Part shown: in pieces, positions 28,372-56,566 of the stretch
How positions within the stretch are numbered: the stretch's first letter is position 1
Layout of the letters: each line of letters begins with the position of its first letter
Virus record (IMG/VR): IMGVR_UViG_3300035698_012959
Location: 3,404 to 67,403 of that record
Strand: one strand, 5' to 3'
DNA: 64,000 bases
From: a virus
Notes under the pieces: model-generated
Told to the model about the DNA's origin: nothing
Databases searched by the model: none
The model's input: only the letters and a program-made list of their open reading frames with translations
Made by a program: the position numbers and the translations under genes

Positions 28372-28844
28372 TGAATGTGTCTATATACCCGGGTTCATTT
28401 AAACCCCCACATAAAGCACATTTTAATATAGTTAAAAATATTTATGCGGAATCAGATAAAGTTATTATATTTATATCCGAAAAAGGAAGAGAAGGAATTG
28501 AAATAGAACAATCATTAAATGTATGGAATCATTTTAAAAAATATATTGGAGAAAATATTGACATTATAGTAAGTTGTAAATCTCCAGTATATGATACTTA
28601 CAAAGAAATCAAATCAAACCCTAATAATAATTATAAAGTATTATACGGTAAAAATGATAAAAGAAGATTTCAAGATATGAATGGATATAATAATGTTACT
28701 ATTATTGATACCGGAAATATAGAAAGTATAAATGCCACTGATTTAAGAAAATTATTACGTAATAATGAATCTATAAGAAAATATATACCTGAATCTATTC
28801 CTATACAAGAATATAAAAACATACTATATAGAAATGAAGATTAA
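28371..28844 (+). CDS. HIGH-motif nucleotidyltransferase (cytidylyltransferase-like)
   Basis: YPGSFKPPHKAH and INATDLR. Confidence 0.85.
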   Translation: MNVSIYPGSFKPPHKAHFNIVKNIYAESDKVIIFISEKGREGIEIEQSLNVWNHFKKYIGENIDIIVSCKSPVYDTYKEIKSNPNNNYKVLYGKNDKRRFQDMNGYNNVTIIDTGNIESINATDLRKLLRNNESIRKYIPESIPIQEYKNILYRNED

Positions 28845-29571
28845 ACAAATATTGATTGAGGTACTGAATAAAAGTAAAAAGAATGAAAAAAGTTGGGGGA
28901 CATTAGTTCCTCCTTCAACCTTAAAACCTGGTGATGAATTATTTACATATGCTGGTACCGACGCAGTAGAACTAATTAAAGCAGTTCCGTTCTCTCAATA
29001 TTCCCTAATATCACAATATGATAGTGCTCAAACTATTAATGATATTGTTAGTGGTTTTGATGATGATAATGTAGATAAAGAAAGAGATTGGTTAGTTGCT
29101 GTAAAACATGTAATGAATAGCGACAAAGCTGAGGTTAATTATGTGTTTGTTTATGGCTATAATGGAGCTTATTTATCTATTAGGAATAATATACACGAGT
29201 CATATCAGCCTATGGTGCATAAAGGTCTTATGGATAATATTGTAAAAATGGTATGTAGTGACTTGCAAATGGACCCACCTAATAGTATTACGTTCCTTAG
29301 AGATGAATCATATACAAAACAACATTCAAGTTTTGGTGGTTATCAACCATCCACAAAAGATGTAATTGTAGTAACGTATAAAAGAAATTTAGCTGACTCA
29401 ACACGTAGTTTATGCCATGAACTTTACCATCATTATCAAAATGTAAATAATAATTTACCGTCTAATGCTGGTGCTGATGGAGATGAATTCGAAAACGCAG
29501 CAAATGCTTATGCTGGATCTATTATGAGAAAAATTGGTAGAAAATACCCCGAAATATATGAATATGAATGA
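28834..29571 (+). CDS. HEXXH zinc-metallopeptidase-like protein with N-terminal leader and variable domain
   Basis: SFGGY, RSLCHELYHHYQ, ENAANAYAG; leader MKIKQILIE. Confidence 0.75.
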   Translation: MKIKQILIEVLNKSKKNEKSWGTLVPPSTLKPGDELFTYAGTDAVELIKAVPFSQYSLISQYDSAQTINDIVSGFDDDNVDKERDWLVAVKHVMNSDKAEVNYVFVYGYNGAYLSIRNNIHESYQPMVHKGLMDNIVKMVCSDLQMDPPNSITFLRDESYTKQHSSFGGYQPSTKDVIVVTYKRNLADSTRSLCHELYHHYQNVNNNLPSNAGADGDEFENAANAYAGSIMRKIGRKYPEIYEYE

Positions 29572-30043
29572 AAAAATAACACATATCTATCTAGATATGG
29601 ATGGAGTTTTGGTTGCTTTTAGCGTTGGTTATCTAAAATTAACAGGAATAGATATAACAGGAGTCTTCCGTAGTGATGATAAATTCTGGAAACCTATAGA
29701 TAAAGCTGGGTCTACTTTTTGGTCCGAATTAAAATGGACTGTTGATGGTCCTGAGTTATATGATTATCTAAAAAACACTGATATTGAATTAAATATCCTT
29801 TCCGCTCCTTCGATGAATGAATCTTCAAGGATAGGTAAAAAAGAATGGGTAAAATTAAATACCCCAGAAACAGACCTGATATTAGAACCAGCATATAGAA
29901 AGAGAAAATATGCTAATTCTACCAGTTTATTGATAGATGATAGAGAAATTAATATAAAGCAATGGGTATCATCTGGTGGGGTAGGTATCATTCATACTAA
30001 TACAATCAATACAATTAAATTACTTAAAGAACTAAATATATAA
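29534..30043 (+). CDS. HAD-family 5'(3')-deoxyribonucleotidase-like protein
   Basis: YLDMDGVL, ILSAP, GKKEW, LIDDR; true start probably an ATG near 29558-29564. Confidence 0.88.
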   Translation: MVENTPKYMNMNEKITHIYLDMDGVLVAFSVGYLKLTGIDITGVFRSDDKFWKPIDKAGSTFWSELKWTVDGPELYDYLKNTDIELNILSAPSMNESSRIGKKEWVKLNTPETDLILEPAYRKRKYANSTSLLIDDREINIKQWVSSGGVGIIHTNTINTIKLLKELNI

Positions 30044-30044
30044 T

Positions 30045-30635
30045 ATGCAGAGTGGACACTTAAAAAAAGAATTTAATGAATCTGATATTACCCGTATAAG
30101 GAATTTAGTAAAGGGTAAGTATGGAGAAAAATCTAAATCTCAAGTTGGTTTCTCAAGATCAAAAAATGAAGTAAAATACAAAAATGGTGATAGGTGGGTA
30201 GTAGGAAATACTCATTGGAAAATGGAAGGTGGTGTAGTGCAGAACATACCAAACCTTAATATAATTCGTAAACAAATCACAACTCCATTATTCTGCCCCT
30301 CATGTAGTAATTTAATGAAGGGTAAATTTGATAATAAGATGTATAAAATACATAAAAAATGTTTTGATTGTGTTATTGTATATGAAACTAGATTAAAAGC
30401 AGAAGGAACATTTGATGAATATCAGAAAAAGTTAATGATGGCTAATGCTAAGGATGTACTACATGATCTTAATGATGGACTTGATAACTTTATCGATAAT
30501 TTTTATGATGTAGAACAAATAATGACTGAAATAGGTGATATAGAAGATTGGGAAGGAAGTAGAGTTGACAAAGAAACTATAAAAAAAGATATAATTAATC
30601 ATTTGAAAGAAATCGAGAGCCAAATATTAAACTAG
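30045..30635 (+). CDS. Conserved phage hypothetical protein with Cys pairs (possible Zn ribbon)
   Basis: PLFCPSC...KCFDC. Confidence 0.7.
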   Translation: MQSGHLKKEFNESDITRIRNLVKGKYGEKSKSQVGFSRSKNEVKYKNGDRWVVGNTHWKMEGGVVQNIPNLNIIRKQITTPLFCPSCSNLMKGKFDNKMYKIHKKCFDCVIVYETRLKAEGTFDEYQKKLMMANAKDVLHDLNDGLDNFIDNFYDVEQIMTEIGDIEDWEGSRVDKETIKKDIINHLKEIESQILN

Positions 30636-30662
30636 ATTCTCATATACTGTACTGATTATTTG

Positions 30663-30687
30663 AAAGGGACCTTGTGTCCCTTTTATT
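30663..30687 (+). terminator. Rho-independent terminator
   Basis: AAAGGGAC-cttgt-GTCCCTTT followed by T-rich tract. Confidence 0.85.
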
Positions 30688-30706
30688 GTCTAAATTTTTT
30701 TGTTTG

Positions 30707-30715
30707 ATATTTATA
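30707..30715 (+). promoter_or_regulatory. Putative late promoter ATATTTATA
   Basis: Between terminator and ORF 30737. Confidence 0.6.
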
Positions 30716-30736
30716 TATGAATAAAAAAGAACTTTA

Positions 30737-31036
30737 ATGAAGAAAACTCAATTAGTAAAATTAGTAAAAGAAGGTATGTCAAATCATTTAAGTATGATTG
30801 ATGAAGCCGGAACAATTGCGGCAAATGAAGCTAAATTATCTAAAATGGCTAGTTATATTGACGAAGGTAATAAGATAGGAAAAGTTTTTGATAATAAATT
30901 ATTTGATAAATTCTTAAGTAGCCAAACTTTAAAAACGGTAAAAAAAGAATTATCAAAAGGAATATCTCAAATTCAAAAACAGTATGATAAACTTCAAACT
31001 GCCCAATTGAAATTGACTACTAGCAGTAAAAAATGA
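30737..31036 (+). CDS. Hypothetical protein with MKKTQLVKLVKE leader
   Basis: 99 aa, basic helical. Confidence 0.7.
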   Translation: MKKTQLVKLVKEGMSNHLSMIDEAGTIAANEAKLSKMASYIDEGNKIGKVFDNKLFDKFLSSQTLKTVKKELSKGISQIQKQYDKLQTAQLKLTTSSKK

Positions 31037-31640: not shown

Positions 31641-32252
31641 ATGAAAAGATCCCAATTAATTGATTTAATAACTACAAGTGTTAAAGCTAATAAAATTAAT
31701 GTAGATAAAAAAACAGCTAGAGATAGTCCGGTAATGGGCGATAAAACATCCGAAGATATCGTACGAATGTTTCCTTATGTTAATGATACATTAGTAGATC
31801 TTATGTCTATGGATTATAAGTTATTTATTGGAAAAATCGAATGGGTAGCACCAAAACCAACTACTTTTAGAGTCACATTAAAGAATGGAAATGATTTTTA
31901 TTTGACTTGGAATAGTGCTGAATTTATGGTTAATATAAATGGATTAGATTTTGATTTAGGTTCAGTAAGTGATGAATTAAGATGTATCAAGCAGATAAAA
32001 GATTCATTAATATATGGTCCCTTCAATAAAAATGAAGATGATGGGGTAGAAAATGACATATCTGATACAGACAAATCATCTGGCTCTGGAGGTGGTGGTT
32101 TAGACAACCCATTTGATGGAAGTGGGGGAGGTGATGATTTTGACGATAGTGATGATGATTTATTCGCTGGTGATGATATTGATGATCCTGTAGAAACAGG
32201 AGAAGATGAAATTGGTCCTGATGATGGTGAAGAAATAGACATGGAAGTTTAA
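31641..32252 (+). CDS. Hypothetical protein with acidic Gly/Asp tail
   Basis: MKRSQL leader, WVAPKPTTFRV.LKNG core, acidic C-terminus. Confidence 0.7.
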   Translation: MKRSQLIDLITTSVKANKINVDKKTARDSPVMGDKTSEDIVRMFPYVNDTLVDLMSMDYKLFIGKIEWVAPKPTTFRVTLKNGNDFYLTWNSAEFMVNINGLDFDLGSVSDELRCIKQIKDSLIYGPFNKNEDDGVENDISDTDKSSGSGGGGLDNPFDGSGGGDDFDDSDDDLFAGDDIDDPVETGEDEIGPDDGEEIDMEV

Positions 32253-32590
32253 TGAAAATATCAATAACAGAAATATTAAAAGTAGTATTATTTGAGTCTC
32301 AAATAAATGAGGAAACAAAAAATATTAATATAGAAGAAGCTATAAGACTTGTTAAAGCTAGTAATGGTGCTATATTTACTGTTCTTTTTACTAAAAAAGA
32401 CGGTAGTGATAGGTTAATGAATGCTAGATTAGGAGTTAAAAAACATCTAAGAGGGGGAGATCTACCGTATGACCCTGTAGCTAAAGGCTTATTACCAGTT
32501 TTTGATATGCAGATAAAACAATATCGAATGATATCATTATCAAAAATAAAAAATGTAAAAATTAATAACAACATATACAATGTTGTTTAA
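32252..32590 (+). CDS. SH3/Sm-like beta-barrel phage protein (WYL_2-like)
   Basis: IFTVLFTKKDGSDRLMNARLGV...VFDMQ...YRMI. Confidence 0.7.
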   Translation: MKISITEILKVVLFESQINEETKNINIEEAIRLVKASNGAIFTVLFTKKDGSDRLMNARLGVKKHLRGGDLPYDPVAKGLLPVFDMQIKQYRMISLSKIKNVKINNNIYNVV

Positions 32591-34011: not shown

Positions 34012-34121
34012 CAAAATTAGAAGATATAATAAATGAAATACAAATAAATCAAAAATCTATACTAGGGGATGGTGAAGAATCTGCAGTATATTCTAGCGTA
34101 CTAAAAAAAGATATAATATGA
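34008..34121 (+). pseudogene. 37-aa remnant: leader plus start of a kinase-like Gly loop
   Basis: MTKLEDIINEIQINQKSILGDGEESAVYSSVLKKDII; ATGA-coupled on both sides. Confidence 0.45.
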
Positions 34122-35461
34122 ATAAAAGAATAGTTATTGTAGGTGCTGGTGTTGCCGGAATAAATGCTGCTACCAAATTAATTGATGAAGGCTACCCTGG
34201 TAACCTAATTACAGTAATAGATAAAGGACAAGATCCATATAATAGACCTGAATCAGAATTAATGGAAGGTATGTTAGGTGCTGGAGGTTGGAGTGATGGT
34301 AAATTAACGTATCACACATCCATAGGTGGTCAATTATCAAAATATTGTGGGGATGAAAAAGCGATGGAATTGATGGATCAAGTAATATCCAATTTTAGGC
34401 GTTTCCACCCAAAACCAGAAGAAATCTTTATGTCTGATCCTAAAGCTGAACCTGATTTTATTAAACCACATTTTGGATTACGATTATTTCCTGTATGGCA
34501 TATTGGTTCAAATTACCTACATAAAATCGCCATAAACTGGTATGAATTTTTACTCGAAAATAAAGTTAATTTTGAGTGGGGGGCTGAAGTTTGGGATATT
34601 GATTTTAAGTCAAGTATAGTAAGTGCCAAAGGTGAAGAAGAGATGGAATTTTGGTATGAAAAACTAATATTTGGTGTAGGTAAATCCGGAATTGATCTAG
34701 GTAAGAAATTAACAGAATTATATAAACTTAAAACCGAACCAAAATCAGTACAGATAGGCGTTAGATTTGAAGCACCCCAAAAATACTTCCAAAAATTAAT
34801 TGATGTTAGTTATGATTTTAAATTATATCAAAAACCAACTGATAAAGTATCGTTAAGGTCTTTTTGTACTAATAATAATGCCGCTTATGTAGCTGTTGAA
34901 GAAACATACGGTGATATAAGTTATAATGGACATGCTAAAAAAGGTGAAGAATTTAGAAACGATATGACTAACTTTGGTATTTTAATGGAAATTAAAGGAA
35001 TTGATAATCCATTTGAATGGTGCAGAGAAATAGTTCAGAAATTTCAACGTAATGTAGAGGAACCAGATACCAGTGCAAAAAACACTAGCCGATATTATCA
35101 GTCTGGATTATATTATTCTCCTTCGGGTAGGAGACCTTCAAATACTTCAGAAGGAGATAAAGTTAAATGTTTCCAAACATATGATATAGATAATATTAGG
35201 AGTATCTTGGGTGGGTATTTTGAACACATTGAAGAATTCATAAATTGCTTAAAATTGGTATTCCCAAATATAAATAATGACTATGGTATGTACCTTCCCG
35301 AAGTTAAATACCTATCACCCGAACCCTTAGTTGATTATGAAAATTTATCAATAATAAACCACCCAAAAGTGCATTTTGTTGGTGATGCTTTAAGTGCTAG
35401 AGGTATTACAGTATCAGGTTCTCAAGGGATATATGTTGCCGAAAATATACTAATAAAATGA
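34118..35461 (+). CDS. FAD-dependent oxidoreductase (COG2509-like)
   Basis: IVIVGAGVAG, GAGGWSDGKL, IGVRFE, RSFC, FVGD..ARGI. Confidence 0.9.
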   Translation: MNKRIVIVGAGVAGINAATKLIDEGYPGNLITVIDKGQDPYNRPESELMEGMLGAGGWSDGKLTYHTSIGGQLSKYCGDEKAMELMDQVISNFRRFHPKPEEIFMSDPKAEPDFIKPHFGLRLFPVWHIGSNYLHKIAINWYEFLLENKVNFEWGAEVWDIDFKSSIVSAKGEEEMEFWYEKLIFGVGKSGIDLGKKLTELYKLKTEPKSVQIGVRFEAPQKYFQKLIDVSYDFKLYQKPTDKVSLRSFCTNNNAAYVAVEETYGDISYNGHAKKGEEFRNDMTNFGILMEIKGIDNPFEWCREIVQKFQRNVEEPDTSAKNTSRYYQSGLYYSPSGRRPSNTSEGDKVKCFQTYDIDNIRSILGGYFEHIEEFINCLKLVFPNINNDYGMYLPEVKYLSPEPLVDYENLSIINHPKVHFVGDALSARGITVSGSQGIYVAENILIK

Positions 35462-35970
35462 ATTACAATAAAAAACGATTACAAGAACTAGCTGGGATAG
35501 ACATACATGAAGGAAAACAAGTTGGCACGTTATATCATTTTACCAACTTTGAAGGTTTGAATGGGATATTATCTTCTAATTTATTGAAAGTGGGGGATGA
35601 TGCTAATTTTGAGACTGGAGGTAATATAGGAAATGTGTCATTAACTCGTGATAAAAATCTTTGGTATTTCTCCTTCCGTCTTGAATTAGATGGTGATAAA
35701 ATGTCCGATAAATACAAAATAACCCCATACCAGTGGAATGGGGGTGATCAAGAAGCAGAGGAGTATATTGAAAGAGATATATCTGATATAAGTTCATACT
35801 TACTAAGTATAACAGTTTGGGTTAATAACCCTGATGATACCATAAGTAAATCTATAATCAATCGTATAATTAAAATGTATCCTAATTTGGAATTCGTGTA
35901 TCAAGATTTTAGAGGAAAGGATTTCATCGAGTTTCCAAACCCCCAACCCACAAAATATAACATAAAATGA
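35458..35970 (+). CDS. Putative ADP-ribosyltransferase-fold protein with capsid-targeting-like leader
   Basis: RLQELAGIDIHE leader, then LYHFT...IL, VSLTRD, EAEE (H-S-E type pattern). Confidence 0.55.
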   Translation: MNYNKKRLQELAGIDIHEGKQVGTLYHFTNFEGLNGILSSNLLKVGDDANFETGGNIGNVSLTRDKNLWYFSFRLELDGDKMSDKYKITPYQWNGGDQEAEEYIERDISDISSYLLSITVWVNNPDDTISKSIINRIIKMYPNLEFVYQDFRGKDFIEFPNPQPTKYNIK

Positions 35971-39483: not shown

Positions 39484-39927
39484 ATGAATTATAATTTAAA
39501 TGAAATGGCTCAGATTAGTGGTGAGTTAAAAGGAGCTATAGAAAGAGTAATAGAAGAAAATCCAGAAGAAAATGGATTAGTACTTAAAAAAATCATTAGA
39601 AAAGACAGTGGAGTACAATCTGCACTTGATGGTGATCAACTATATGATAATCAATTGAATAAATTCATAGCACTTCAGAAAGGTGAGCGTACACTATCTC
39701 AAAGAGGAAGAAAACCTGGTGAAGTGACATCTCAACTATCAATTATTAAATCCATTTTATCTAAATCATCTGAGGGGATAAGTGATTTCAGTGATGATGA
39801 AATAAAAATGGTTGATAAATTACATTCATTAGTTAATGGAGGTGAAAGTGTTGAAGAAAATGATTATAGCATTAACAGACTTCAAGAGTTAGCTGGGATC
39901 GAATCTAAAAAAAAACTTTGGAAGTAA
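39484..39927 (+). CDS. Hypothetical, putative internal head protein
   Basis: MNYNLNE|MA start, QRGRKP (AT-hook-like), C-terminal RLQELAGI. Confidence 0.7.
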   Translation: MNYNLNEMAQISGELKGAIERVIEENPEENGLVLKKIIRKDSGVQSALDGDQLYDNQLNKFIALQKGERTLSQRGRKPGEVTSQLSIIKSILSKSSEGISDFSDDEIKMVDKLHSLVNGGESVEENDYSINRLQELAGIESKKKLWK

Positions 39928-40158: not shown

Positions 40159-40755
40159 ATGAAATTAACAAAAATAATCAAAACTGTTCTCCAAGAGTAT
40201 AACCCACAACGAGAAAAAGAACGTGAATCTCCATCCCCCGAGGTACATCCTGATACAAAACCACTAGAACGTCCAACCAGAAGACGTACACTAACCCCTC
40301 CTACAGAAGCTCCACGCACTAAACCTAAAGCAGAAAATTTTGAAGACAAAATTTCTAGCAGATATTCTGACATGAAAGATAAAAGCAGAATGCAAGAATT
40401 AGCAGGTATGCCACGGGATGAAAGGGGTCAATTTGATGATGAGGAATACCGAGATGAAGAAGCAGATGAACGTAAATACTGGGGTGTCGGTGATGATGAT
40501 ATAATGGAAAATGAAGAATTCGAAGATAACTACTCACATCTAAGTGATACTGATATTATAGAGTGGGCTAATGATAATGATCTGGATTATGACTTAGATT
40601 TCGATGGTAATTTAATAGACAGGCAAGGAATATTAGATACTATATTAGGATTGACGGGGGAGTATGACGATGATGAATATGGTGATTATGAAGAAGACCC
40701 ATTTATGGATGATTTTGACCCGGCAGGAGGCAGAGGTTTGAGCTCTTACATCTAA
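40159..40755 (+). CDS. Acidic low-complexity putative internal head protein
   Basis: MKLTKIIKTVLQE leader, Pro/Arg block, RMQELAGM, Asp/Glu-rich tail. Confidence 0.7.
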   Translation: MKLTKIIKTVLQEYNPQREKERESPSPEVHPDTKPLERPTRRRTLTPPTEAPRTKPKAENFEDKISSRYSDMKDKSRMQELAGMPRDERGQFDDEEYRDEEADERKYWGVGDDDIMENEEFEDNYSHLSDTDIIEWANDNDLDYDLDFDGNLIDRQGILDTILGLTGEYDDDEYGDYEEDPFMDDFDPAGGRGLSSYI

Positions 40756-42219: not shown

Positions 42220-44199
42220 ATGAAAAAATATCTTTTACTAGAATACACAGACAAAACTGTAAATGCTATATTAAAACAATGGAAAGAAGATACCCCCAAT
42301 CTTAATACAGAATCTGCCTTAAGTTTAATACAAAATTTTGAAAGAATCAAAAGTGGTCTTAAAGACCATTTAGAAACATATAGTTTTCCTGATAAACCTG
42401 GTTTCTTGGATACAAACAGGCAACCATTTACTGATATATTCAAATATACAGCTTCTGAAGTAGCTACTCTTATAAGATCTATACCTGAAAGTAAGAAGAA
42501 AATAATAAAAGCAGCAGCAAAAAGATTTAAGCAAAAATTTCATACTGAACATGGCGCCGCTATATCTTATATAAGTCGATTTCTTGCTAATAAAGCTAAA
42601 ATCGAAATGGGGTTTGAGAAAGGTTTAGAAAGGGATGGTTTTAGTAAAGAAGCATTTTTGGAATACATACCTAATAATTTATATAGGAATGGTATGTATT
42701 TAGATCCTAGATATTGGGATTGGAATGATTTTGAAACATTACTTGATGCTGTTTTTCCTGAAGTTGAAGAGGAGGAAGAAGGAGCTGCTGAAGATGGAGA
42801 AAATCTAGCTATGTTGAATGGTGATTTGATATATGATAAAAATAATTTAGAAATATATAGTGTTAGTGATGTTGAAAAATGCATTAAGTACAAACCAGTA
42901 GTTTCAGGTGATAATCCTATTAATTGGTGTATATCAGCTAAAGGTAACACTCAATATGATTATAGAAGACTAAATGATGAAGCTCCAACATTCTTTATGG
43001 TAGCTGATAGAGATCAGGATTCTAGTCTAGGTAAAGATAGATTTGAGAATCCGTTTCACGCTTGGGTATTACAAGTAACTAATAAGGAAACATATTTAAT
43101 AACAAATGCTGATAATCGTAGAGATTTACGAGTAGATAGTTGGGAGGAAATAAATACAGTAGTAGATCCAAGAACATGGAATAAAATAAAAGGTTTAAAA
43201 GATGTATTTAAACACAAGCCTTTGGATGATATTGAATTATTCAGGAAAATGTATGCAAATAAACCATTAACTTTAGGTGATTTTAAAGCACTAGATATAG
43301 ATAATAAAAAGTTATATATACTCGCTAAAGGAGGGAAAAATGAAATCCCCGAACCAATATTAAGAATACTTCCTTTAATAAAAGTCAAGGAAGATGGAAG
43401 ATCTACAAATGCTGCTGAATTAGCTATGAAAACTGGACAAATGTTTACATGGGAATTATTACAAGATTCCCCAAAACTAGCTGAAAGGTATACTGTTATT
43501 AGATTTAGACATGGTACAGGTAATGGAAAGTTAGTTCCATTAAAATTCGTTCAATACCTTGATGATAGTGGTAAAACAGAATATATTAAACTATTTGAAG
43601 ATTATATAAGTTGTAAATATATTGAGGAGTATTTCGGGGAAAAACATTTATTAGAATACATCAACAATAAAGCCAAGAATTTAGAATTTGTTGAGAGTGG
43701 TTATACCCATCTTATAAAAAACCCAAAACTAAGACAAATACAGGAAGCAGTTTCTGAGTTATCTAGAAATTGGTATACATCTAAATCTTTTGATATGTCA
43801 CGTGAAAAATTAGAACAATTAACATTACCACCAGAACTAGTGTGGTTTGATGAAAAGTACCTTTATGATGACTTTATGAAGTTAGATAGTAAAACTATCA
43901 ATGATATAATATCTGTATCTGAATTTACAGCTAGAGATATCAAAAAATATAATGAATTTAATTACATGGTTCCCTTACTAATTAAAGATGGTAAAGGTAG
44001 CTACAATTTCTTATTGCCAAAACCATCTAAAAGTTATTATCATGATGATTGGATATTAGTAGATAAAAATAAAAAAACAGTACAAGATAATATAAATGGT
44101 AATACATCAACATTTAATAATACCCAATTATCTTCTGGTTATAAACCAGGTGAGGTAAGGATTTTAGAACCTAAAAATTTAAAGTTAGTAGAAAAATAA
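42220..44199 (+). CDS. Large hypothetical protein with WCIS motif, putative head/ejection protein
   Basis: MKKYLLLE leader; NWCISAKG..YDY.R (PcfJ-like pattern). Confidence 0.65.
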   Translation: MKKYLLLEYTDKTVNAILKQWKEDTPNLNTESALSLIQNFERIKSGLKDHLETYSFPDKPGFLDTNRQPFTDIFKYTASEVATLIRSIPESKKKIIKAAAKRFKQKFHTEHGAAISYISRFLANKAKIEMGFEKGLERDGFSKEAFLEYIPNNLYRNGMYLDPRYWDWNDFETLLDAVFPEVEEEEEGAAEDGENLAMLNGDLIYDKNNLEIYSVSDVEKCIKYKPVVSGDNPINWCISAKGNTQYDYRRLNDEAPTFFMVADRDQDSSLGKDRFENPFHAWVLQVTNKETYLITNADNRRDLRVDSWEEINTVVDPRTWNKIKGLKDVFKHKPLDDIELFRKMYANKPLTLGDFKALDIDNKKLYILAKGGKNEIPEPILRILPLIKVKEDGRSTNAAELAMKTGQMFTWELLQDSPKLAERYTVIRFRHGTGNGKLVPLKFVQYLDDSGKTEYIKLFEDYISCKYIEEYFGEKHLLEYINNKAKNLEFVESGYTHLIKNPKLRQIQEAVSELSRNWYTSKSFDMSREKLEQLTLPPELVWFDEKYLYDDFMKLDSKTINDIISVSEFTARDIKKYNEFNYMVPLLIKDGKGSYNFLLPKPSKSYYHDDWILVDKNKKTVQDNINGNTSTFNNTQLSSGYKPGEVRILEPKNLKLVEK

Positions 44200-45430: not shown

Positions 45431-46393
45431 ATGAATGTACAACAAATAATAAAAGAAGAAGTAGTAAAAGTTCTTAAAGAACAAACTGCTATAGTCAATA
45501 ACCATATAGTATCATACGAAGATGATGATGAATTAGAAATTATAAAAAAAGATGATGCTGTAAAAAGTATAAAAAAAGTAGACGGTACAGTAATAAAAGA
45601 AATGGCTGGTAAACCATCCATACATTATTCACTAAAACCCAACCATGAAGAAAAACTAAAAAAATATATAGTAAGAACTAAAAAGGATTCAATAATAACT
45701 ATAGTTACTAAATTAACTGAATTACTAAAAATAAAGCCTAATCAAACTGTAATGGATTTATTTACTCAGATTAGAGAAATATATAAAGGTCAGGTAGACA
45801 TATTAGCTAAGGTTAAGAATCACCAAAATATTAAATATTATTTATGGGGGGGGTTAACATCAGATAAATTTAATGCTAGATACTTAGATGTAAAAGATCC
45901 GGTAACTGGTATCAATTATACTAAAGGTAATTTGAACGCGATAGATTGGACTCCATTTTCAAGAACTAAAGATGCTAAAGAATTAGATGATTTCGAAAAA
46001 TCAAAAATACTAAAAATAAGTAATCCCGAAGAATTTGAAAAAATAGCTCAAAACCGTAAGAAAAATGCTAATCCGATCACAGATGCTGTGATAGAATACA
46101 AAATACTTAGAGGTAAATATTTCAAACATAAAAATGGTAAGGATGCCTCTTCACAAAACCACTTTCCAGTCATCCAAGGTAAAATGAATGATTTATTAAA
46201 TATAGATGTTGCCGTCGCTATATTATATCAATGGGATAAAGAATATATTACATTACCATTAGATAATCCATTAAAAATATTTGGTGAAAGGAATGGTCTT
46301 ACTGATGGTATGAAATCCCCACAACTTACATCCAAATACAAAACTACTCTCAATCAATTAATTAAAGATAAAAAAGTAGTATCTTTAGGTTAA
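45431..46393 (+). CDS. Hypothetical protein, putative internal head protein
   Basis: MNVQQIIKEEVVKVLKE leader and internal VIKE|MA. Confidence 0.65.
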   Translation: MNVQQIIKEEVVKVLKEQTAIVNNHIVSYEDDDELEIIKKDDAVKSIKKVDGTVIKEMAGKPSIHYSLKPNHEEKLKKYIVRTKKDSIITIVTKLTELLKIKPNQTVMDLFTQIREIYKGQVDILAKVKNHQNIKYYLWGGLTSDKFNARYLDVKDPVTGINYTKGNLNAIDWTPFSRTKDAKELDDFEKSKILKISNPEEFEKIAQNRKKNANPITDAVIEYKILRGKYFKHKNGKDASSQNHFPVIQGKMNDLLNIDVAVAILYQWDKEYITLPLDNPLKIFGERNGLTDGMKSPQLTSKYKTTLNQLIKDKKVVSLG

Positions 46394-49204: not shown

Positions 49205-49213
49205 TATTTTTTG

Positions 49214-49221
49214 ATATTTAT
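49214..49221 (+). promoter_or_regulatory. Putative late promoter ATATTTAT
   Basis: Before portal gene. Confidence 0.5.
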
Positions 49222-49239
49222 CAATAAAAAATATATTAA

Positions 49240-51135
49240 ATGGCTGTTGACACTAGTATTTTTGGGCAGTTGAAACGTTTGTTTTCAACTGATGTTATAA
49301 TTCGTAATGTAGGGGGTAATAAGTTAAAGGTTGTTGATACTGAACGTATTCAGTCTTATGGAAATGTCAAGACAAATTCATTAGTAGACAGATATAACAG
49401 AATTCATATGGGTAGTAATAGGAATGCCTATACCCCAACAATGAATTACCAAACCTTAAGAAATCAATTATATACTGATTATGAAGGGATGGATCAAGAC
49501 CCTATTTTAGCTTCTGCATTAGATATAATAGCGGATGAATGTACATTAAAAAATGAGCAAGGTGAAATTTTAGCAATAAATTCACCTAATGAAAATATAC
49601 AGCAAGTATTATATAATTTATTTTATGATGTTTTAAATATCGAATTTAATTTATGGTCTTGGATTAGAACTATGTGTAAGTATGGTGATGCTTATCTTTA
49701 CATGGAGATAGCAGAGAAGTTTGGTATAATAAATGTATTACCAGTATCAAGTTATGATGTCATAAGACAAGAAGGGCAAGATCCAGAACGACCATCATAT
49801 GTATCATTTAAAGTTGGTGAAGATGGCTCTAGATATGCTTTAGGTTATGCCGGAGGTATAAATAGAGATATAGAAAATTATGAAATGGCCCATTTCAGAT
49901 TATTATCTGATTATAACTACCTTCCTTATGGCCGTTCATACATGGAACCCGCACGTAAAGTATTTAAGCAACTTTCATTAATGGAAGATGCTATGCTAGT
50001 TCATAGAGTAATGAGAGCTCCAGAAAAAAGGATTTATTACGTAGATGTAGGTTCTATACCTCCAAACGAAGTAGATGCTTACATGGAGAAAATAAAAAAT
50101 AATATTAAAAAAACTCCATATATTGATCCAGAAACTGGAGATTATAACCTCAAATATAACATGCAAAGTGTTAATGAGGATTTTTATATACCTAGAAGGG
50201 GAAATAATGATGGTGGTACACAAATTGATACTTTAAAAGGATTAGAATATAATGCCATCGAAGATGTTGAGTATCTAAGAGATAAAATGTTGTCATCATT
50301 AAAAATCCCAAAAGCATTTTTTGGTTATGAAAAAGATCTAGAAGGAAAAGCAACTTTAGCCGCCGAAGATATTAGATTCGCTAGAACAATTGAGAGAATA
50401 CAAAGAATTGTAACAAGTGAATTACATAAAATAGCATTAGTTCATTTATACACACAAGGATTTGATGATGAGCAATTAGTTGATTTTGAACTAACACTAC
50501 ATTCTCCTTCCATCATATATGAACAAGAAAAAGTAGCATTATTAAAAGAAAAGACCGCATTAGCCATTGACATGGTTGATTCTAATTTATTCCCATCTGA
50601 TTGGGTATATGATAATGTATTTAACTTAAGTGAAGATAAATTAAATAGTTTAAGACAATTAGTTGTCGAGGATAAAAAACGTTCTTTCAGATTAAACCAA
50701 TTAGAAAATGAAGGTAACGATCCAGCGGCAAGTGGTACATCATACGGTACACCCCATGACTTAGCCGCGCTTTATGGTAGAGGGAGAATGGCTAAAGGTG
50801 ATGTTCCTTCAGGATATGACGAAAAAGAAACTGCAGGTAGGCCTAAAGAAAGAGCTTCTTCATATGATACCCAAAACTCTAACTTAGGTAAAGATGTAAT
50901 GGGAAGCGATGCTTTAGGAGATAAAATCCCCCATTCCATAAAAACATCTTACAAAGGTAAAACCCCATTATCTATAAGTGAAGGAAAACATATTTATCAT
51001 AGAGATGTAGATATATATAACAATGATACTGATGAATCGGAAGATTTTGAAGAAGAAGATATTTATGATGATGGAGATATTGATGAAAATTATGAGTCTG
51101 CGTTACTGAATGAATCCATGATAATTAAAGAATGA
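49240..51135 (+). CDS. Portal protein (T4 gp20-like)
   Basis: ALDIIADE, LMEDAMLVHRVMRAPEKRIYYVDVG, EDFYIPRR, IDTLKG, LKIPK, EDIRF. Confidence 0.96.
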   Translation: MAVDTSIFGQLKRLFSTDVIIRNVGGNKLKVVDTERIQSYGNVKTNSLVDRYNRIHMGSNRNAYTPTMNYQTLRNQLYTDYEGMDQDPILASALDIIADECTLKNEQGEILAINSPNENIQQVLYNLFYDVLNIEFNLWSWIRTMCKYGDAYLYMEIAEKFGIINVLPVSSYDVIRQEGQDPERPSYVSFKVGEDGSRYALGYAGGINRDIENYEMAHFRLLSDYNYLPYGRSYMEPARKVFKQLSLMEDAMLVHRVMRAPEKRIYYVDVGSIPPNEVDAYMEKIKNNIKKTPYIDPETGDYNLKYNMQSVNEDFYIPRRGNNDGGTQIDTLKGLEYNAIEDVEYLRDKMLSSLKIPKAFFGYEKDLEGKATLAAEDIRFARTIERIQRIVTSELHKIALVHLYTQGFDDEQLVDFELTLHSPSIIYEQEKVALLKEKTALAIDMVDSNLFPSDWVYDNVFNLSEDKLNSLRQLVVEDKKRSFRLNQLENEGNDPAASGTSYGTPHDLAALYGRGRMAKGDVPSGYDEKETAGRPKERASSYDTQNSNLGKDVMGSDALGDKIPHSIKTSYKGKTPLSISEGKHIYHRDVDIYNNDTDESEDFEEEDIYDDGDIDENYESALLNESMIIKE

Positions 51136-51980
51136 ATATAAAGCACAATAAACTAAAAAATACAGGTATATTATATGAATTGTTAATTAACCAATTAACA
51201 TCAGATGTATTCCACGATAAAGATTCAAAAGTAATATCTATTATAAAAGAGTTTTATAGTAATACTGAAATATCTAAAGAATATAAGCTGTATAAAACTA
51301 TATTAACATCCCAGTATGATAATGTAGGTAAAGCAAATAATGTGTTAGAAGCTATTAATGAAACTCATACAAAAATAAACAAGAAAAAATTAAAACAAGA
51401 AAAATACCGTTTAATTAATGAAATAAAATCTAATTATGATATCAAAGATTTTTTTAGACATAAAATCCCAAATTATAAAGTGCATGCCTCTATATATAAT
51501 TTGTTAGAATTTAACTCTACAGTAGATTTTATATCCCCACAATTCGTCATTAATAATAAAATAACATTACTAGAATATATAACAAATATTAATAGTAATG
51601 AGGATATAAAAGACGATACATTAAATGAATTTAAAAATACTGAAAAAGGTACACGTTTATTGATATACCAATCTTTAGTTGATAAATTTAATACAAAATA
51701 CACTAGTCTGTCAGAAGGGCAAAAAGGTATATTAAGTCAATACATTAATAATATGAATAATCCTCTATTATTGAAAGAATGTATAAATAACCACATTAAG
51801 AATATTAAAAGAAAATTAAAATCATGTGTAGTAAATAATAATGTTATTAAGATTAAATTGGAAGAGATAAACAGAATATTGATTCCTTTAGGGAAAGGTG
51901 ACTATGTCAAAGATGACGATTTTATAAATATACTACAATATTATGAGTTAATTAAAGAAATCAAATTAATAAGCGAATGA
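51132..51980 (+). CDS. Conserved head-region hypothetical protein
   Basis: IKHNKLKNTGILYELL, EKYRLINEIK, FNTKY..L. Confidence 0.75.
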   Translation: MNIKHNKLKNTGILYELLINQLTSDVFHDKDSKVISIIKEFYSNTEISKEYKLYKTILTSQYDNVGKANNVLEAINETHTKINKKKLKQEKYRLINEIKSNYDIKDFFRHKIPNYKVHASIYNLLEFNSTVDFISPQFVINNKITLLEYITNINSNEDIKDDTLNEFKNTEKGTRLLIYQSLVDKFNTKYTSLSEGQKGILSQYINNMNNPLLLKECINNHIKNIKRKLKSCVVNNNVIKIKLEEINRILIPLGKGDYVKDDDFINILQYYELIKEIKLISE

Positions 51981-53137
51981 AAAGGTCTCAACTTAGTGAA
52001 TTGATAAATGGGAAATTGAAAGAAATGAATGCCACTTCGGGTGGGGAAGCTTATGCTCCCCCTCTAGGTAAAAAAGTGGATGAAATTAAATTAAGAGAAC
52101 CAGGTGCTTCACATATAATTCGTGATCCGCATAGAATATCAACTTTACCTAAACTTAATTTAACAATAGGAAAGTATAATGTTTCTAAAGACAAAGTTGG
52201 ATTACAGGTACCTTTTGGTACTGTAACTAAAATGACATTAAACAGAGCTAGAAACGTATTTGACAAATTAGGTATTACTATTGAAAAAGCATTTTTAGGT
52301 TGGTTGGTAAGATCACATGAATATACGAATGATGATGGGGAAGTGAAAAAAAATTTCTATGTAAATATACGTACAACTTATTTATTATCTACTTACAAAA
52401 ATAAACCTGTAATGTTTGTTCAAAATCAAACTTCATCTAATCTAGCAGGGCAGGCATATTTGTATAGTGAATATTTTAAATCCGGTAAATCATTAAGATT
52501 AAAACCAGACAATCCACCAAAAATCCACACACACCATAGCGGGGCCTCAACTAGTAAGTACCAATGGCAAGATAGTAGTGATGTAAAAGCAGATGATGCC
52601 ACCACAAGTAAAGAAATGATTTTAAGAGCATTAAAATACGATCAATTAAGTGAAGTTAAATTAAGAGAACCTGGAGTGTTAGCTAGTTACAAAGAAGAAG
52701 CAATAGCTGATTTAACAGATTTAAAACAATCATATTTTGACGTTAACGATAATGACGACAATTATAATAAAGCCGTAAGTTACATACGAGGTGCAAAGGA
52801 TGAAATGGAATTAAGTCGAAGATTGGAAAGAGTATTTAAAGACCCAAGTGTTTTAGATGATATTAAATATAGAATAAATAATGACGGTGGTACATTAAAT
52901 GAAATATCTACTCGCAAATTTAACAAACGAATATCAAGAGTAAGTCCATTAAGTAAAGTTAATAGATCTATTAGTGAAATTAGTAAAAGATTAAAAGAAA
53001 TTAATTCAGTGATAGGACACACTTCAAAATTAATGAATGAATCTGGGAGTGGTAATAGTAGAACTAAAGAAAAAATTGCTAAATTATTAGTCGATATCAC
53101 AAACACAAGAACTAATTTAAGAAATTTAATGAAATGA
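51977..53137 (+). CDS. Putative head protein carrying two tandem E|[IV]KLREPG cassettes
   Basis: MKRSQL leader, cassettes 52085-52654 and 52655-52903, basic coiled-coil C-terminus. Confidence 0.7.
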   Translation: MKRSQLSELINGKLKEMNATSGGEAYAPPLGKKVDEIKLREPGASHIIRDPHRISTLPKLNLTIGKYNVSKDKVGLQVPFGTVTKMTLNRARNVFDKLGITIEKAFLGWLVRSHEYTNDDGEVKKNFYVNIRTTYLLSTYKNKPVMFVQNQTSSNLAGQAYLYSEYFKSGKSLRLKPDNPPKIHTHHSGASTSKYQWQDSSDVKADDATTSKEMILRALKYDQLSEVKLREPGVLASYKEEAIADLTDLKQSYFDVNDNDDNYNKAVSYIRGAKDEMELSRRLERVFKDPSVLDDIKYRINNDGGTLNEISTRKFNKRISRVSPLSKVNRSISEISKRLKEINSVIGHTSKLMNESGSGNSRTKEKIAKLLVDITNTRTNLRNLMK

Positions 53138-53757: not shown

Positions 53758-53764
53758 ATAAAAA

Positions 53765-54607
53765 ATGAAAAGTATAAAACAACAATACATAGATCTTAAT
53801 GAAAATAAAATGAGCAAAGCTCAATTTATGAGAAATGCTAGAATGACATTACCTCATTTGATTAGCTCAACCAACAACTTTACAGATGCTGTAAAGATAT
53901 TGACTAATAAAGGTATATTACTGGAAGTGAAAGCTAAGAAACAAGTTACAATTGAACCTCAATATCAATACCACCCACACGAATTAGAATTGGGAATTGA
54001 AGACGAAGGTGGGGCTGATGAACAGGATATGTTTGATAAGCTTAAAGAAAAAGTAGTAAAAAACTTAGAAAAAGATGCAAATTATTACACACATAAAAAG
54101 GGTGGAATAAAAAAACGTACCAAGGCTAAAGAAGATCAATTTAAATATAGAGAGATAAAAAAGAAATATATTTCAGATAATCAAATGGAAAAATCTAAGG
54201 AAAAAATAGTTGAAACTAAACTACGTAAATTAGTTAGAAAAGCTATACTTCTTGAATTATCATCAGATTCATTTAAGAGCTATGCTCGAAAATCAACAGC
54301 CAGGGGAGAAACAAAAAGAGTAGGGAAAGGTTCTCAAAACTTCTTTCATCAATTTATGGGAAAATCTTTACTAGGTGGTGAAATAACAAACATATCATAC
54401 ATAGAGGAAATTAAAGAAGTTGGAGTAGAAATTACAGCAAATCATAGCGATATGTATATCAATTATTCAGTAGAGGATGATAATTGGGGAATGGATAAAC
54501 CCGTGGATAGAAAAGATGCAAGAATTCTATCACTAATAGCTAAAAAAATTAATCCTAATACCAAATATGGGAGTGGTAGCAAAGGATTTAAGATAAAAGG
54601 ATATTAA
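53765..54607 (+). CDS. Hypothetical modular head-region protein
   Basis: Segments delimited by LNE, LLE, ILLE; ELELGI.DE...KNLEKDANYYT module. Confidence 0.7.
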   Translation: MKSIKQQYIDLNENKMSKAQFMRNARMTLPHLISSTNNFTDAVKILTNKGILLEVKAKKQVTIEPQYQYHPHELELGIEDEGGADEQDMFDKLKEKVVKNLEKDANYYTHKKGGIKKRTKAKEDQFKYREIKKKYISDNQMEKSKEKIVETKLRKLVRKAILLELSSDSFKSYARKSTARGETKRVGKGSQNFFHQFMGKSLLGGEITNISYIEEIKEVGVEITANHSDMYINYSVEDDNWGMDKPVDRKDARILSLIAKKINPNTKYGSGSKGFKIKGY

Positions 54608-54619
54608 TAAAATAGAACA

Positions 54620-55249
54620 ATGAAACAACTATTAGTAGATACTATATTATTTGAAGTAGAACCAAGCGTTATTAATGAAAATATTAAAAATGGTGGTACA
54701 TTAACTGTTAAAGGTCCAATACAAAAAGCGGAGACTAAAAACGGTAATGGTCGGGTATACTCTAGAGAAATATTAAATAGAGAATTCAAAAAATATAACG
54801 AAGGTCCCATTAAAGAAAGTAGATCAACAGGTGAGTTGGATCACCCCGATTCACCTGTTATTAACTTAAAGAATGTATCACATATCATACGTAATATATG
54901 GTGGGATGGTGATACTGTTATGGGGGAAATAGAAGTATTAACTACACCTTCAGGTAATATATTAAAAGAATTAATTAAATGTGGGGTAAAAGTAGGAGTA
55001 TCATCTCGAGGTATGGGTTCTGTTAAACAAATAGGTGAAACCGTTGAAGTACAAGAAGATTTTGAACTATTATGTATTGATTTTGTCTCAACACCTTCCA
55101 CTCCGGGAGCTTACATGGATTCCATAAATGAATCATTAAATTTATCAACACCTCCTGTAGAATCATTATATACTAATATTGATAATTTAATAACCGAAAT
55201 ATTGTGTAATCGCATAGGATATTGTCCTTGCGATTTACCTACTAATTAA
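54620..55249 (+). CDS. Prohead core protease (T4 gp21-like)
   Basis: NGNGRVY, GELDHP, NVSH, GVSSRGMGS, DFVSTPS. Confidence 0.95.
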   Translation: MKQLLVDTILFEVEPSVINENIKNGGTLTVKGPIQKAETKNGNGRVYSREILNREFKKYNEGPIKESRSTGELDHPDSPVINLKNVSHIIRNIWWDGDTVMGEIEVLTTPSGNILKELIKCGVKVGVSSRGMGSVKQIGETVEVQEDFELLCIDFVSTPSTPGAYMDSINESLNLSTPPVESLYTNIDNLITEILCNRIGYCPCDLPTN

Positions 55250-55294
55250 ATATAAACATCAGGATATTATTCTTCGTTTTGATTGTTTTGGTTC

Positions 55295-55409
55295 ATATGT
55301 ATCGCCGATTTACGATATGTTATCTCTAATATAACATTTAAAATAATTATTTTTCAATTTTTACATTGGACTTTTATATGCATCTGAGTATATATAATAA
55401 TAAGTCTCC
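55295..55409 (+). promoter_or_regulatory. Late-promoter variant (ATATGTAT) plus structured leader of the scaffold/capsid operon
   Basis: Hairpin ATGTTAT/ATAACAT 55317-55337 and imperfect stem 55368-55409. Confidence 0.4.
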
Positions 55410-55441
55410 AAACTCTACGTAAAGAACAATAACAAAAAAAC

Positions 55442-56566
55442 ATGATAAAAAAGAAAAACAAAACTAATGATCTTTTAAAAGAAGCAATTGCTGACGCTCA
55501 AAGAATCAAACAAACAGCATTAGAAAATGCTAAAATGGTAATAGAAGAAAGCCTATCACCAAAAATCAAAAAAATCCTTTCAGAAAAACTGAATGAGATG
55601 GCAGATGATGATCTTGATGAAGGTATGTATGATTCCGATGAAGATTTAGACATTGATGAAATTCTTAGAGAATTAGAAGAAGATGATCTTAATGAAAATG
55701 AAGATTTAGACGAAGCCGCTGGTGATGATGAAGATAAACCAAAGCCAAAAGCAAAACCTAAAACTGACGATAAACCAAAACCAAAACCAAAGGCCAAGCC
55801 GAAATCAGAAGATGATGACGATGATGACGAGGATGATGATGAAGGATTCGGTGATGATGACGATGATGATCTAGGTGTTGAAGATGATATGTCTGACGGT
55901 GATGGTGATTTAGGTGGTGAAGAGCAAGACGTTAAAGATATGAGTGCATCTGAATTATCAGAGTTAATTACATCAATTATACAAGGTGTAATGGGGACCG
56001 GTGAGGAAGATGGATTAGGTGGAAGTGATATTGGACCTATTGGAGCCGAAGATGGATTAGATTCAGGTAGGGATGATATTGGATTTGGTGATGATATGGA
56101 AGGTGAAGAAGACGATATTGACATTAGTGAAGATGAGTATGGAATTGAAGAAGACGAAGATGATATGGTTTACGAATCATTGAAACAAATTAATAAATTA
56201 CGTGAAGAGTTAAAAGAAACTAATTTATTAAATTCTAAATTACTATACATGAATAAGGTGTTTGCAGGTCAACAATTAAATGAGCAAGAAAAGATTGGTG
56301 TGATGAAAGCATTTGATAAAGCTGATTCAGTAAAGGAAGCAAAATTAATCTTTGAAACTATTCAAACTAGACCAAAAAGAAAAGAAACAGCAAATTCTAG
56401 AAATAGAAAAACAAAGTATAGAAGCACAGCAGGAAAAAGACAGATTAGAGAAGTTAAAGGCAGTGCTTCAAGCGTATTAGGTGGAAGTATGAGAAAACCA
56501 ATCGTTAAAGTTAACGAAACAGTTGCCAGATGGCAGAAATTGGCAGGATTAGATACATCAAAATAA
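55442..56566 (+). CDS. Prohead scaffold/core protein
   Basis: Between protease and capsid genes; LLKEAIADA, highly acidic middle, LLNSKLLY, C-terminal RWQKLAGL. Confidence 0.85.
   Translation: MIKKKNKTNDLLKEAIADAQRIKQTALENAKMVIEESLSPKIKKILSEKLNEMADDDLDEGMYDSDEDLDIDEILRELEEDDLNENEDLDEAAGDDEDKPKPKAKPKTDDKPKPKPKAKPKSEDDDDDDEDDDEGFGDDDDDDLGVEDDMSDGDGDLGGEEQDVKDMSASELSELITSIIQGVMGTGEEDGLGGSDIGPIGAEDGLDSGRDDIGFGDDMEGEEDDIDISEDEYGIEEDEDDMVYESLKQINKLREELKETNLLNSKLLYMNKVFAGQQLNEQEKIGVMKAFDKADSVKEAKLIFETIQTRPKRKETANSRNRKTKYRSTAGKRQIREVKGSASSVLGGSMRKPIVKVNETVARWQKLAGLDTSK

Follow-up and report, generated by a model that had tools for sequence, protein, structure and literature searches.

Scaffold-tail and leader peptides shared by unrelated proteins near a T4-type head module: a probable capsid-targeting and protease-release system

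A 64-kb window of viral DNA, out of the 67.4-kb record IMGVR_UViG_3300035698_012959 (rated 41% complete), carries a T4-type head module and, around it, open reading frames (ORFs) in which short peptide elements recur on otherwise unrelated proteins. These elements probably form a T4-style system of capsid targeting and prohead-protease release that has been extended to polyprotein-like carriers.

In such a system, an address would bring a protein into the core of the assembling prohead, most likely through the contact made by the scaffold tail itself. Two forms of address are proposed, a short N-terminal leader of amphipathic character (M-x-K-L-x-x-[IL]-L-x-E) and a peptide copied from the final dozen residues of the scaffold (R-[LMWF]-[QK]-[QEK]-L-A-G-[IL]). 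Directly after the address a release site, [LIV]-x-E and often [LI]-N-E, would be cut by an S77 prohead protease of the gp21 type, which would also trim the capsid propeptide and shred the scaffold. Each freed domain would start with an opener, I-K-[VI]-N-[NK]-P (here [IV]-[KR]-L-R-E-P). The same grammar would join cargo to the carriers ORF40798, ORF42220, ORF51977 and ORF53765, or insert it in their surface loops. Maturation would then free a changeable set of small, mostly acidic proteins and of enzymes in the head, including one with an ADP-ribosyltransferase (ART) fold, for delivery with the DNA. Prohead binding, cleavage, presence in the virion and injection are all proposed here by analogy with T4.

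An earlier note on this DNA had described a leader, a domain-opening tag and a motif shared with the scaffold C-terminus. A six-frame scan of the whole 67.4-kb record and reading of the ORFs found all three where it had placed them. The opener, E[IV][KR]LREP, has four matches in three ORFs, and the scaffold-tail tag, R.Q.LAG, has four matches in four ORFs, in every case in the coding frame. The copies, with two degenerate openers, are located in the window as follows.

41503, + strand: opener, ORF40798
52082 and 52652, + strand: openers, ORF51977
53161, + strand: opener, ORF53134
41068, + strand: degenerate opener EIKLNKR, ORF40798
44152, + strand: degenerate opener EVRILEP, ORF42220
35476, + strand: tag, N-terminus of ORF35458
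39877, + strand: tag, C-terminus of ORF39484
40387, + strand: tag, internal in ORF40159
56528, + strand: tag, C-terminus of the scaffold (tail RWQKLAGL, the identity that the note had proposed)

The motifs exceed shuffled controls. Among 68 ORFs, 15 exact 7-mers are common to different ORFs, RLQELAG(I) and EIKLREP(G) among them, compared with a mean of 0.87 and a maximum of 4 in 100 shuffles. A first [LIV]xE ends at residue 5-20 in 17 of the 32 ORFs in 28834-58190 (7.4 ± 2.4 in shuffles, 0 of 1000 reaching 17) and in 10 of the 34 ORFs outside this region (7.4 expected, a count reached by 206 of 1000 shuffles). The strict amphipathic leader is found in 7 of 32 ORFs near the head genes (1.1 expected, 1 in 1000) and in 3 of 34 elsewhere (1.2 expected, 131 in 1000). 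Similarly, [LIV]NE occurs 25 times in 28834-58190, against 11 ± 3.2 expected, and 12 times outside, against 13. About 12-13 ORFs carry at least one strong element and no ORF carries all three, so that the note's count of more than a dozen ORFs sharing the three elements is too high. No paralogy was found among the tag-bearing ORFs. Chance, or the composition of this AT-rich genome (G+C ~28%, with nearly all genes of the window on the + strand), would produce some of the loose leaders, which are common (7.4 of 32 expected). Set against the shared 7-mers, the enrichment only beside the head genes and the conservation of the motifs across hundreds of proteins of other records, it has virtually no probability as a general explanation, and for the two strong motifs it is refuted.

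The motif codons of the copies in the window vary at wobble positions. The conservation is therefore at the level of the peptide, and a DNA repeat was rejected. Nine motif copies in the related, complete 175-kb genome G002 also vary at synonymous sites, and six N-terminal copies there have unrelated upstream DNA. With no motif in other frames or on the opposite strand, it is very improbable that the motifs are conserved DNA elements within genes (promoters, cassette recombination sites or mobile mini-elements) and the peptides their by-products, even if cargo domains plainly move between genes and genomes and conserved flanks could favour recombination.

Comparison with ~170 related loci extends these observations; the nearest cultured phage is Flavobacterium phage immuto (capsid identity 55%). 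The 20 scaffold C-termini that were aligned all close with R-x-x-x-L-A-(G)-[IL], with R, L and A invariant and G nearly so, and in 15 of the 20 the alignment has [LIVT]xE about 8 residues upstream of the tail. The tag, with the consensus R[LMWF][QK][QEK]LAG[IL], is carried by unrelated small proteins as well. In immuto and IMG/VR relatives, small unrelated ORFs have it at the N-terminus, and in locus L002 a 619-residue ORF upstream of the terminase gene has it at the C-terminus. In 81 loci around the protease there are 15 tag matches in + strand ORFs and 0 in − strand ORFs. In 80 loci around homologues of ORF40798, 36 tag and 56 opener matches are on the + strand and 0 on the − strand, and the openers there include many in other proteins.

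A composite-tag profile of 30 positions was searched against 1.84 billion cluster representatives and matched 175 at E≤0.001 and 34 at ≤1e-10. Among 150 listed of the 175, tag and opener are both present in 126, and the tag lies within the first 15 residues in 122. The 121 cargo parts of at least 40 residues from these 150 fall into 78 groups without mutual similarity (29 members in the largest). Of 99 tagged proteins with at most 140 residues, 74% are net acidic, and no conserved C-terminal closer was found in the stand-alone tagged proteins. The profile matches 18 times in G002, twice in immuto, twice (weakly) in this record and, as a control, 0 times in T4. In immuto, a phage of Flavobacterium sp. 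LMO8, the tagged ORFs are gp083 and another near 25.1 kb. An S77 protease (50-57% identity) is encoded in 5 of 5 tag-rich records tested. Among the 15 distinct ORFs of G002 with tag or opener are the scaffold and the ORF51977 and ORF53765 orthologues. A region surrounding the head genes, 24% of the genome, holds 12 of the 15, and the binomial value for this, 7e-6, is optimistic because the region was chosen after seeing the data.

The two address forms meet at a single position in the family of ORF35458.

35458..35970, + strand: ORF35458, ART-fold enzyme by its predicted structure; tag RLQELAGI 35476-35499, boundary IHE|GKQVG 35503-35526

Of 32 proteins found in this family, 22 were aligned (21 homologues and the window protein). 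Where the window has MNYNKKRLQELAGIDIHE, 16 of the 21 homologues start MIK[LF]x[DN][LI][LI]..E, and the Glu before [AGR]KQVGTLYHFT is invariant in the alignment. Leader and scaffold-tail tag are thus two kinds of address that replace each other at one boundary.

The model of ORF35458 (AlphaFold2, AF2) has a predicted local distance difference test score (pLDDT) of 71 and the fold of an ADP-ribosyltransferase. A search of 48,161 chains with VIA-align gives Z scores of 9.5 for Tpt1 (root-mean-square deviation 2.9, 107 aligned) and 8.2 for DarT1 (130 aligned), followed by another 8.2, and nearly all of the best 50 rows are of the ADP-ribosyltransferase type. Foldseek matches point in the same direction but are weak (E 4e-3 and worse), and the Pfam match to Tox-ART-HYD1 (8.3e-5, 23.6 bits) is under the 25-bit cut-off and covers residues 25-57 only. 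The VIA-align alignments start at model residue 14-22, which places the tag outside the ART fold. In the 22 sequences His27, Tyr86 (nearly) and Glu101/Glu102 are conserved and are candidates for an H-Y-E triad. Just upstream, and sharing 4 bases with the start of the ORF35458 gene, lies a gene for a flavin adenine dinucleotide (FAD)-type oxidoreductase (34118-35461), which is one of the best conserved in the region (70% identity, homologues in 69 loci).

The other small tagged proteins are listed below.

28834..28860, + strand: leader MKIKQILIE (strict pattern) of ORF28834, 245 residues, which contains HELYHH (HExxH)
30737..30772, + strand: leader MKKTQLVKLVKE (strict pattern) of ORF30737, 99 residues; its listed homologues start with similar leaders
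32252..32311, + strand: leader MKISITEILKVVLFE-SQINE (strict pattern) of ORF32252, 112 residues, phrog_2267 and a weak WYL_2 match
39484..39927, + strand: ORF39484, 147 residues; C-terminal tag RLQELAGI 39877-39900
40159..40755, + strand: ORF40159, 198 residues with an acidic tail; leader MKLTKIIKTVLQE 40159-40197, internal tag RMQELAGM 40387-40410
45431..45457, + strand: leader MNVQQIIKE (strict pattern) of ORF45431, 320 residues
53134..53757, + strand: ORF53134, an orphan of 207 residues; leader MIKLSNILKE 53134-53163, then (E)IRLREP 53161-53181

Except for ORF35458, the tagged ORFs are small, acidic or of unknown function. Pfam and PHROGs searches on 12 tagged proteins gave nothing beyond noise other than phrog_2267 in P0176, a tag-bearing protein of 513 residues. 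This is the domain of ORF32252, whose homology to its relatives begins at residue 15-25, past the leader. The same domains are found alone or within larger proteins. The C-terminal 115 residues of ORF28834 have homologues at the end of proteins of 871-1358 residues in other phages. Homologues of ORF40159 either stand alone (81-82 residues) or are fused behind ..NLNE in a 477-residue protein, and residues 2-93 of ORF39484 have homologues in 6 loci. For ORF53134 no homologue of 113-363 residues was found, and its layout of leader plus opener recurs in L093:2268 and L121:1420. The C-terminal part of this orphan also has the exact 7-mer EGDINSI in common with ORF26013 (26013-26948), which has a zinc-finger-like N-terminus.

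The element that the note had read as EIKLREP is the local form of a widespread opener, E-IK[VI]N[NK]P. Its part as the start of inserted domains was borne out, and the wording itself proved to be one variant. The opener starts every inserted or appended domain that was compared. It often comes straight after a leader, as in MKLVDLLNE-IKVKSP and xIKLLNILSE-IRINKP, the same layout as MIKLSNILKE-IRLREP in the window, and it also comes straight after the scaffold-tail tag (MNEIKRLQQLAGIITE-IKVNNP). The proteins to which such domains are joined are as follows.

40798..42219, + strand: ORF40798, conserved carrier with a core of ~338 residues; inserts 41068-41253 (EIKLNKR...SLNE) and 41503-41796 (EIKLREPG...DLNE)
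42220..44199, + strand: ORF42220, second carrier family; leader MKKYLLLE 42220-42243, degenerate opener EVRILEP 44152-44172
51977..53137, + strand: ORF51977, head-core carrier at the T4 gp67/gp68 position; N-terminus 51977-52084, opener 1 52082-52102, domain X 52085-52633, opener 2 52652-52672, conserved C-terminal core 52904-53134 after TLNE
53765..54607, + strand: ORF53765; conserved 54-residue N-terminus ending ILLE| (53765-53926), then a hypervariable region

ORF40798 has 174 homologues of 293-827 residues. The family has three insertion points, and the inserts open with [LI][DNK]E-I[KT][VI]N[KN]P and close with xLNE. Among the 120 homologues that were listed, the number of openers per protein rises with length, from 0.02 at up to 345 residues (n=58) to 0.57 at 346-450 (n=21), 1.46 at 451-600 (n=24) and 2.59 above 600 (n=17). 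In the AF2 model of the core (pLDDT 87), the insertion points correspond to a disordered loop, a hairpin turn and the C-terminus. This model has no match in the PDB at E≤0.001 and one in BFVD, an uncharacterised protein of an uncultured phage. The family is absent from 50,697 cultured-phage records but for two weak matches in huge uncultured phages, and for both ORF40798 and ORF42220 Pfam and PHROGs gave nothing beyond noise.

The mature start of the ORF42220 family, E|Y[ST][DE]K, follows the leader in stand-alone proteins (MKKYLLLE, MKLTDILILE, MITFKKILQE) and follows ..QLNE or ..LLRE where the protein is fused behind other domains. Homologues of ORF42220 bear C-terminal openers. In ORF51977, ~33 N-terminal residues and, from right after TLNE, ~75 C-terminal residues are common to the orthologues. 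The ~270 residues between them are lineage-specific and fall into two parts that both begin with E-[IV]KLREPG. Domain X, the first of these (residues 36-219), matches domains of loci L090, L121 and L085/L086 at 36-38% identity (E 6e-28) and has three different settings there. It follows MIKFREILAE-IGINRP as a stand-alone domain in L090, is appended to the end of a 647-residue protein with the ORF40798 core in L121, and is placed between the ORF40798 and ORF42220 families within a single ORF of 1238 residues in L085 (7357-11073). In every setting the homology begins at the opener. The G002 orthologue of ORF53765 has two openers. The homology boundaries of the carriers fall exactly after [LI]xE, so that the domain swaps break at the xxE sites, and comparison with the relatives supports the portability of the tags, both on stand-alone proteins and spliced into conserved carriers, as had been suggested. 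Strings of domains like the L085 fusion were also observed at L093:7603-12450 (1615 residues) and L113:5192-9694 (1500 residues).

The location of the inserts bears on another reading of the motifs, as structural junction peptides (connectors or short strands that insulate folds from each other) that stay uncut and are unrelated to the capsid. Inserts at a loop, a hairpin turn and a C-terminus would suit such peptides, opener and closer would be spatial neighbours at the base of an insert, the Glu is followed by Ile or Val where the sites of the capsid protein and T4 gp23 have a small residue, and the virion role of the carriers is putative. On the other hand, the opener also directly follows the leaders of stand-alone small proteins, where there is nothing to insulate and no conserved C-terminal closer. 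Moreover, its partner tag is identical to the scaffold C-terminus, two different leaders interchange at one Glu boundary, and the [LI]xE found at every junction is the signature of the protease family encoded in all of the tag-rich records tested. This reading is therefore improbable.

Other known kinds of insert or tag were considered for these elements and rejected. Inteins have Cys/Ser/Thr at the start and His-Asn plus Cys/Ser/Thr at the end, whereas the inserts here have Ile or Val after Glu at the start and L-N-E at the end. An intramolecular isopeptide or SnoopTag-like strand, which the motif resembles, would call for a conserved C-terminal partner motif, and the stand-alone tagged proteins have none. 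There is no NPGP as in 2A-like skipping motifs, and no Cys as in a lipobox.

The T4-type head module, assigned by Pfam and PHROGs, occupies 46448-58190 of the window. It contains the terminase large subunit, portal, ORF51132, ORF51977, ORF53134, ORF53765, protease, scaffold and capsid protein.

49240..51135, + strand: portal protein, T4 gp20 family (Pfam Portal_T4 2e-71)
51132..51980, + strand: ORF51132, conserved head-module protein rich in [LIVM]xE, probable core or scaffold component; homologues in 77 of 82 loci
54620..55249, + strand: prohead protease ORF54620, T4 gp21 family (Peptidase_S77 PF03420 1e-28, phrog_207 4e-55)
55442..56566, + strand: acidic scaffold, 374 residues; release site VNE 56510-56518, tail tag RWQKLAGL 56528-56551
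56595..58190, + strand: major capsid protein, gp23 family (Pfam Gp23 2.4e-71)

The gene order portal, core genes, protease, scaffold and capsid is that of T4 20-67-68-21-22-23. As the order is shared, the four unannotated ORFs (51132, 51977, 53134 and 53765) occupy the position of the T4 prohead-core genes. The analogy with T4 on which the note had relied fits in the S77 protease, the gp20 and gp23 homologues and this order. The protease scores 100.6 against PF03420 (cut-off 27 bits) and has a SINE|S site after its catalytic domain (55121-55141); an [LI]xE|[GS] site at this place was read in 4 relatives' proteases (4 read). The capsid protein has a probable propeptide (56595-56774) that ends LLNE|A, and the LLE, LLE and LNE noted earlier in its N-terminus are present. 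In 19 aligned capsid proteins Glu60 is invariant, position 58 is Leu, Ile or Val in all, and the next residue after the Glu is Ala, Gly, Ser or Val. T4 gp23 carries LTE at 63-65, in agreement with this site. The enrichment of [LIVM]xE is strongest in the scaffold (22 against 9.6 expected, z 4.6), ORF51132 (13 against 5.8, z 3.45) and ORF51977 (z 2.5). Such enrichment is expected if these proteins are shredded in the way that excerpts of PMC9026906 describe for T4 gp22, gp67 and gp68. A complex prediction for the capsid protein and the last 45 residues of the scaffold (alignments A5 and A6) had a score of 0.07, with the mark at 0.32, and gives no answer either way.

Several further features of the module were observed. 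The terminase large subunit (46448-49204, 918 residues) has an intein-like insert of ~370 residues from CFSGDT to VVHNC, with weak Pfam Hint/intein matches, and this is the probable true intein of the window. The terminase of L002 (530 residues) is without it, and that of G002 matches at full length (925 columns, 53% identity). The protease ends in a Cys-rich tail, C-x5-C-x-C (55190-55246), which in relatives is C-x5-C-x2-C or C-x5-C-x-C. Just upstream of the protease, relatives have a very basic ORF of 42-46 residues that ends Y[QR]GQG[RK] (L010:7650-7778, L019:8336-8464, L002:9864-10004), and no counterpart was found in the window. Microcystis phage Mel-JY01 (L163) has a gene annotated as ribosomal protein S21 at 17576-17803, in the head module between protease and scaffold.

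The tags might be real signals for a destination other than the capsid, such as a cytoplasmic or membrane hub (perhaps ORF51132) or protease-timed destruction or activation outside the capsid, with no packaging at all. ORF51132 is widely conserved and has no assigned role, and the cargo is mostly acidic (74% of the 99 small tagged proteins), compared with the basic internal proteins of T4 described in the excerpts of PMC9026906. This alternative seems improbable as well, since the tag forms the invariant end of a protein, the scaffold, that is known only from inside the prohead, the tagged genes cluster with the head genes, openers are found on head-core genes at the T4 gp67/gp68 position, and in T4 such leaders suffice for packaging, according to the same excerpts.

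In T4, capsid targeting sequences (CTS) of 10 residues and cleavage after Glu are described, together with Alt, a packaged ADP-ribosyltransferase, and internal proteins that are diverse behind a conserved CTS (excerpts of PMC9026906, PMC3012670 and PMC5694885). The system proposed here resembles that of T4 (IPI, IPII, IPIII, Alt; gp21) in its S77 protease, portal and capsid families and its head gene order, in its unrelated proteins with short N-terminal leaders ending [LI]xE, and in a diverse, fast-changing cargo behind a conserved tag. The ART-fold enzyme among the tagged proteins is a parallel to Alt in kind, not in ancestry. Read by eye, the termini of the T4 head proteins gp67, gp68, gp21, gp22, gp23 and gp24 are alike in style (M..QL[LI].E). 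There are also differences from T4. One of the two addresses is a copy of the scaffold C-terminus itself, the cut site is followed by a conserved opener, and the tags are also internal, where they bound domains inserted in or strung onto conserved carriers. In addition, the cargo is mostly acidic, whereas that of T4 is basic.

In the giant phages (phiKZ, 201phi2-1 and SPN3US), excerpts of PMC5694885 and PMC9026906 describe a gp21-related protease that cuts after Glu at A/S/G-x-E sites and the processing of many head proteins, whose propeptides hold redundant sites and are proposed there to bring proteins into the prohead. Their propeptides often exceed 100 residues and belong to paralogous families, and a short portable tag, scaffold-tail mimicry and an opener are not among the features described in these excerpts. 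The gp21-related protease, the Glu sites and the proposed targeting by propeptides are common to both systems.

In herpesviruses, assemblin and the scaffold have the same C-terminal tail, which attaches to the major capsid protein and is removed by cleavage at the M-site. The likeness lies in a scaffold tail used as a capsid-binding handle, a protease site just upstream and the presence of the tail on a co-packaged protein. However, the herpesvirus protease is of another family, there is no sequence relation, and the tail has one extra passenger there (the protease) compared with many unrelated ones here. Encapsulin cargo-loading peptides are short terminal peptides that send unrelated cargo into an HK97-fold shell. 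Here too short terminal peptides are found on unrelated cargo, with a shell of the HK97 fold, but encapsulins have no protease release, DNA or delivery, and their peptides have other sequences.

Several observations weigh against T4-style packaging and release. Chance would account for about 7 of the 17 loose leaders, and some loose leaders are on enzymes (AAA ATPase, DUF2201). The tag of ORF40159 is internal, with no canonical [LIV]xE after it, and that of ORF39484 is C-terminal. The residue after the opener Glu is Ile or Val, while it is Ala, Gly, Ser or Val at the capsid site of the clade and Ala in T4 gp23; the cut may therefore lie elsewhere, or the opener may not be a cut site. ORF40798 and ORF42220 are conserved ORFs without a recognised function or fold and with a putative virion role, and excision of loop inserts would leave these carriers nicked. 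The C-terminus of T4 gp22 lacks the scaffold-tail tag. The composite-tag profile has 0 matches in Mel-JY01 despite 48% capsid identity, and the tag code is thus not universal in the clade. The literature searched held no virion proteome of immuto or Mel-JY01, nor of this phage or other relatives.

The T4 capsid targeting sequence is the textbook route for proteins carried with phage DNA, and it has been used to engineer phages that deliver proteins. The present observations suggest a richer version of it, with a portable scaffold-tail address, a fixed junction of release site and opener, and reuse of this junction for cargo on carriers. None of the exact tag strings searched for, of 6 and 7 residues, turned up in full-text literature searches (supplements outside their scope). 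Near matches were irrelevant: KKLAGL in an unrelated peptide-design paper and 'deikin' inside unrelated words, with none for 'deikvn'. A literature search on capsid targeting returned only papers on T4, P22 and SPN3US, with no such tags described beyond T4 and the giant phages.

With their shortness, strong conservation and specificity (175 protein clusters out of 1.84 billion representatives, 0 matches in T4), the tags offer a direct means of listing which proteins of uncultured phages are probably injected. The tagged proteins, the ART-fold enzyme among them, are candidate anti-defence or host-takeover factors, and the tags themselves are possible new packaging tags for phage engineering. 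A bolder proposal, possible but doubtful, is that the code serves a large clade of T4-like phages, aquatic and uncultured, as a general language for packaging proteins. The protease would then excise cargo from the loops and ends of conserved carriers, like cassettes at the level of the protein, and the opener I-K-V-N-x-P, which would remain on each freed domain, would be a second signal beyond its place at the prime side of a cut site, for example for ordered exit through portal and tail or for docking in the head. If true, the sets of injected effectors of phages never cultured could be mined from their sequences alone.

Several other features of the window were also noted. No transfer RNA genes were found in it. 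A conserved trio of genes is located at 36098-39422, a MoxR-like AAA_5 ATPase, an ORF of unknown function and a DUF2201 metallopeptidase-VWA protein, with homologues in L093, L135 and L139. The large ORFs at 18681-22295 and 23441-25186 have Pro/Thr-rich linkers with common repeats of the TSTPTQT type, and at 18-22 kb the G+C skew is strongly negative despite coding on the + strand. Two ORFs of the tail region (17053-18063 and 25195-25485) have ~25 C-terminal residues in common (..ITTVGLY.DD.ELL.VAKL..). At 61150-63999 an open-ended ORF of at least 950 residues, rich in Gly, Ser and Thr and tail-fibre-like, runs off the end of the window.

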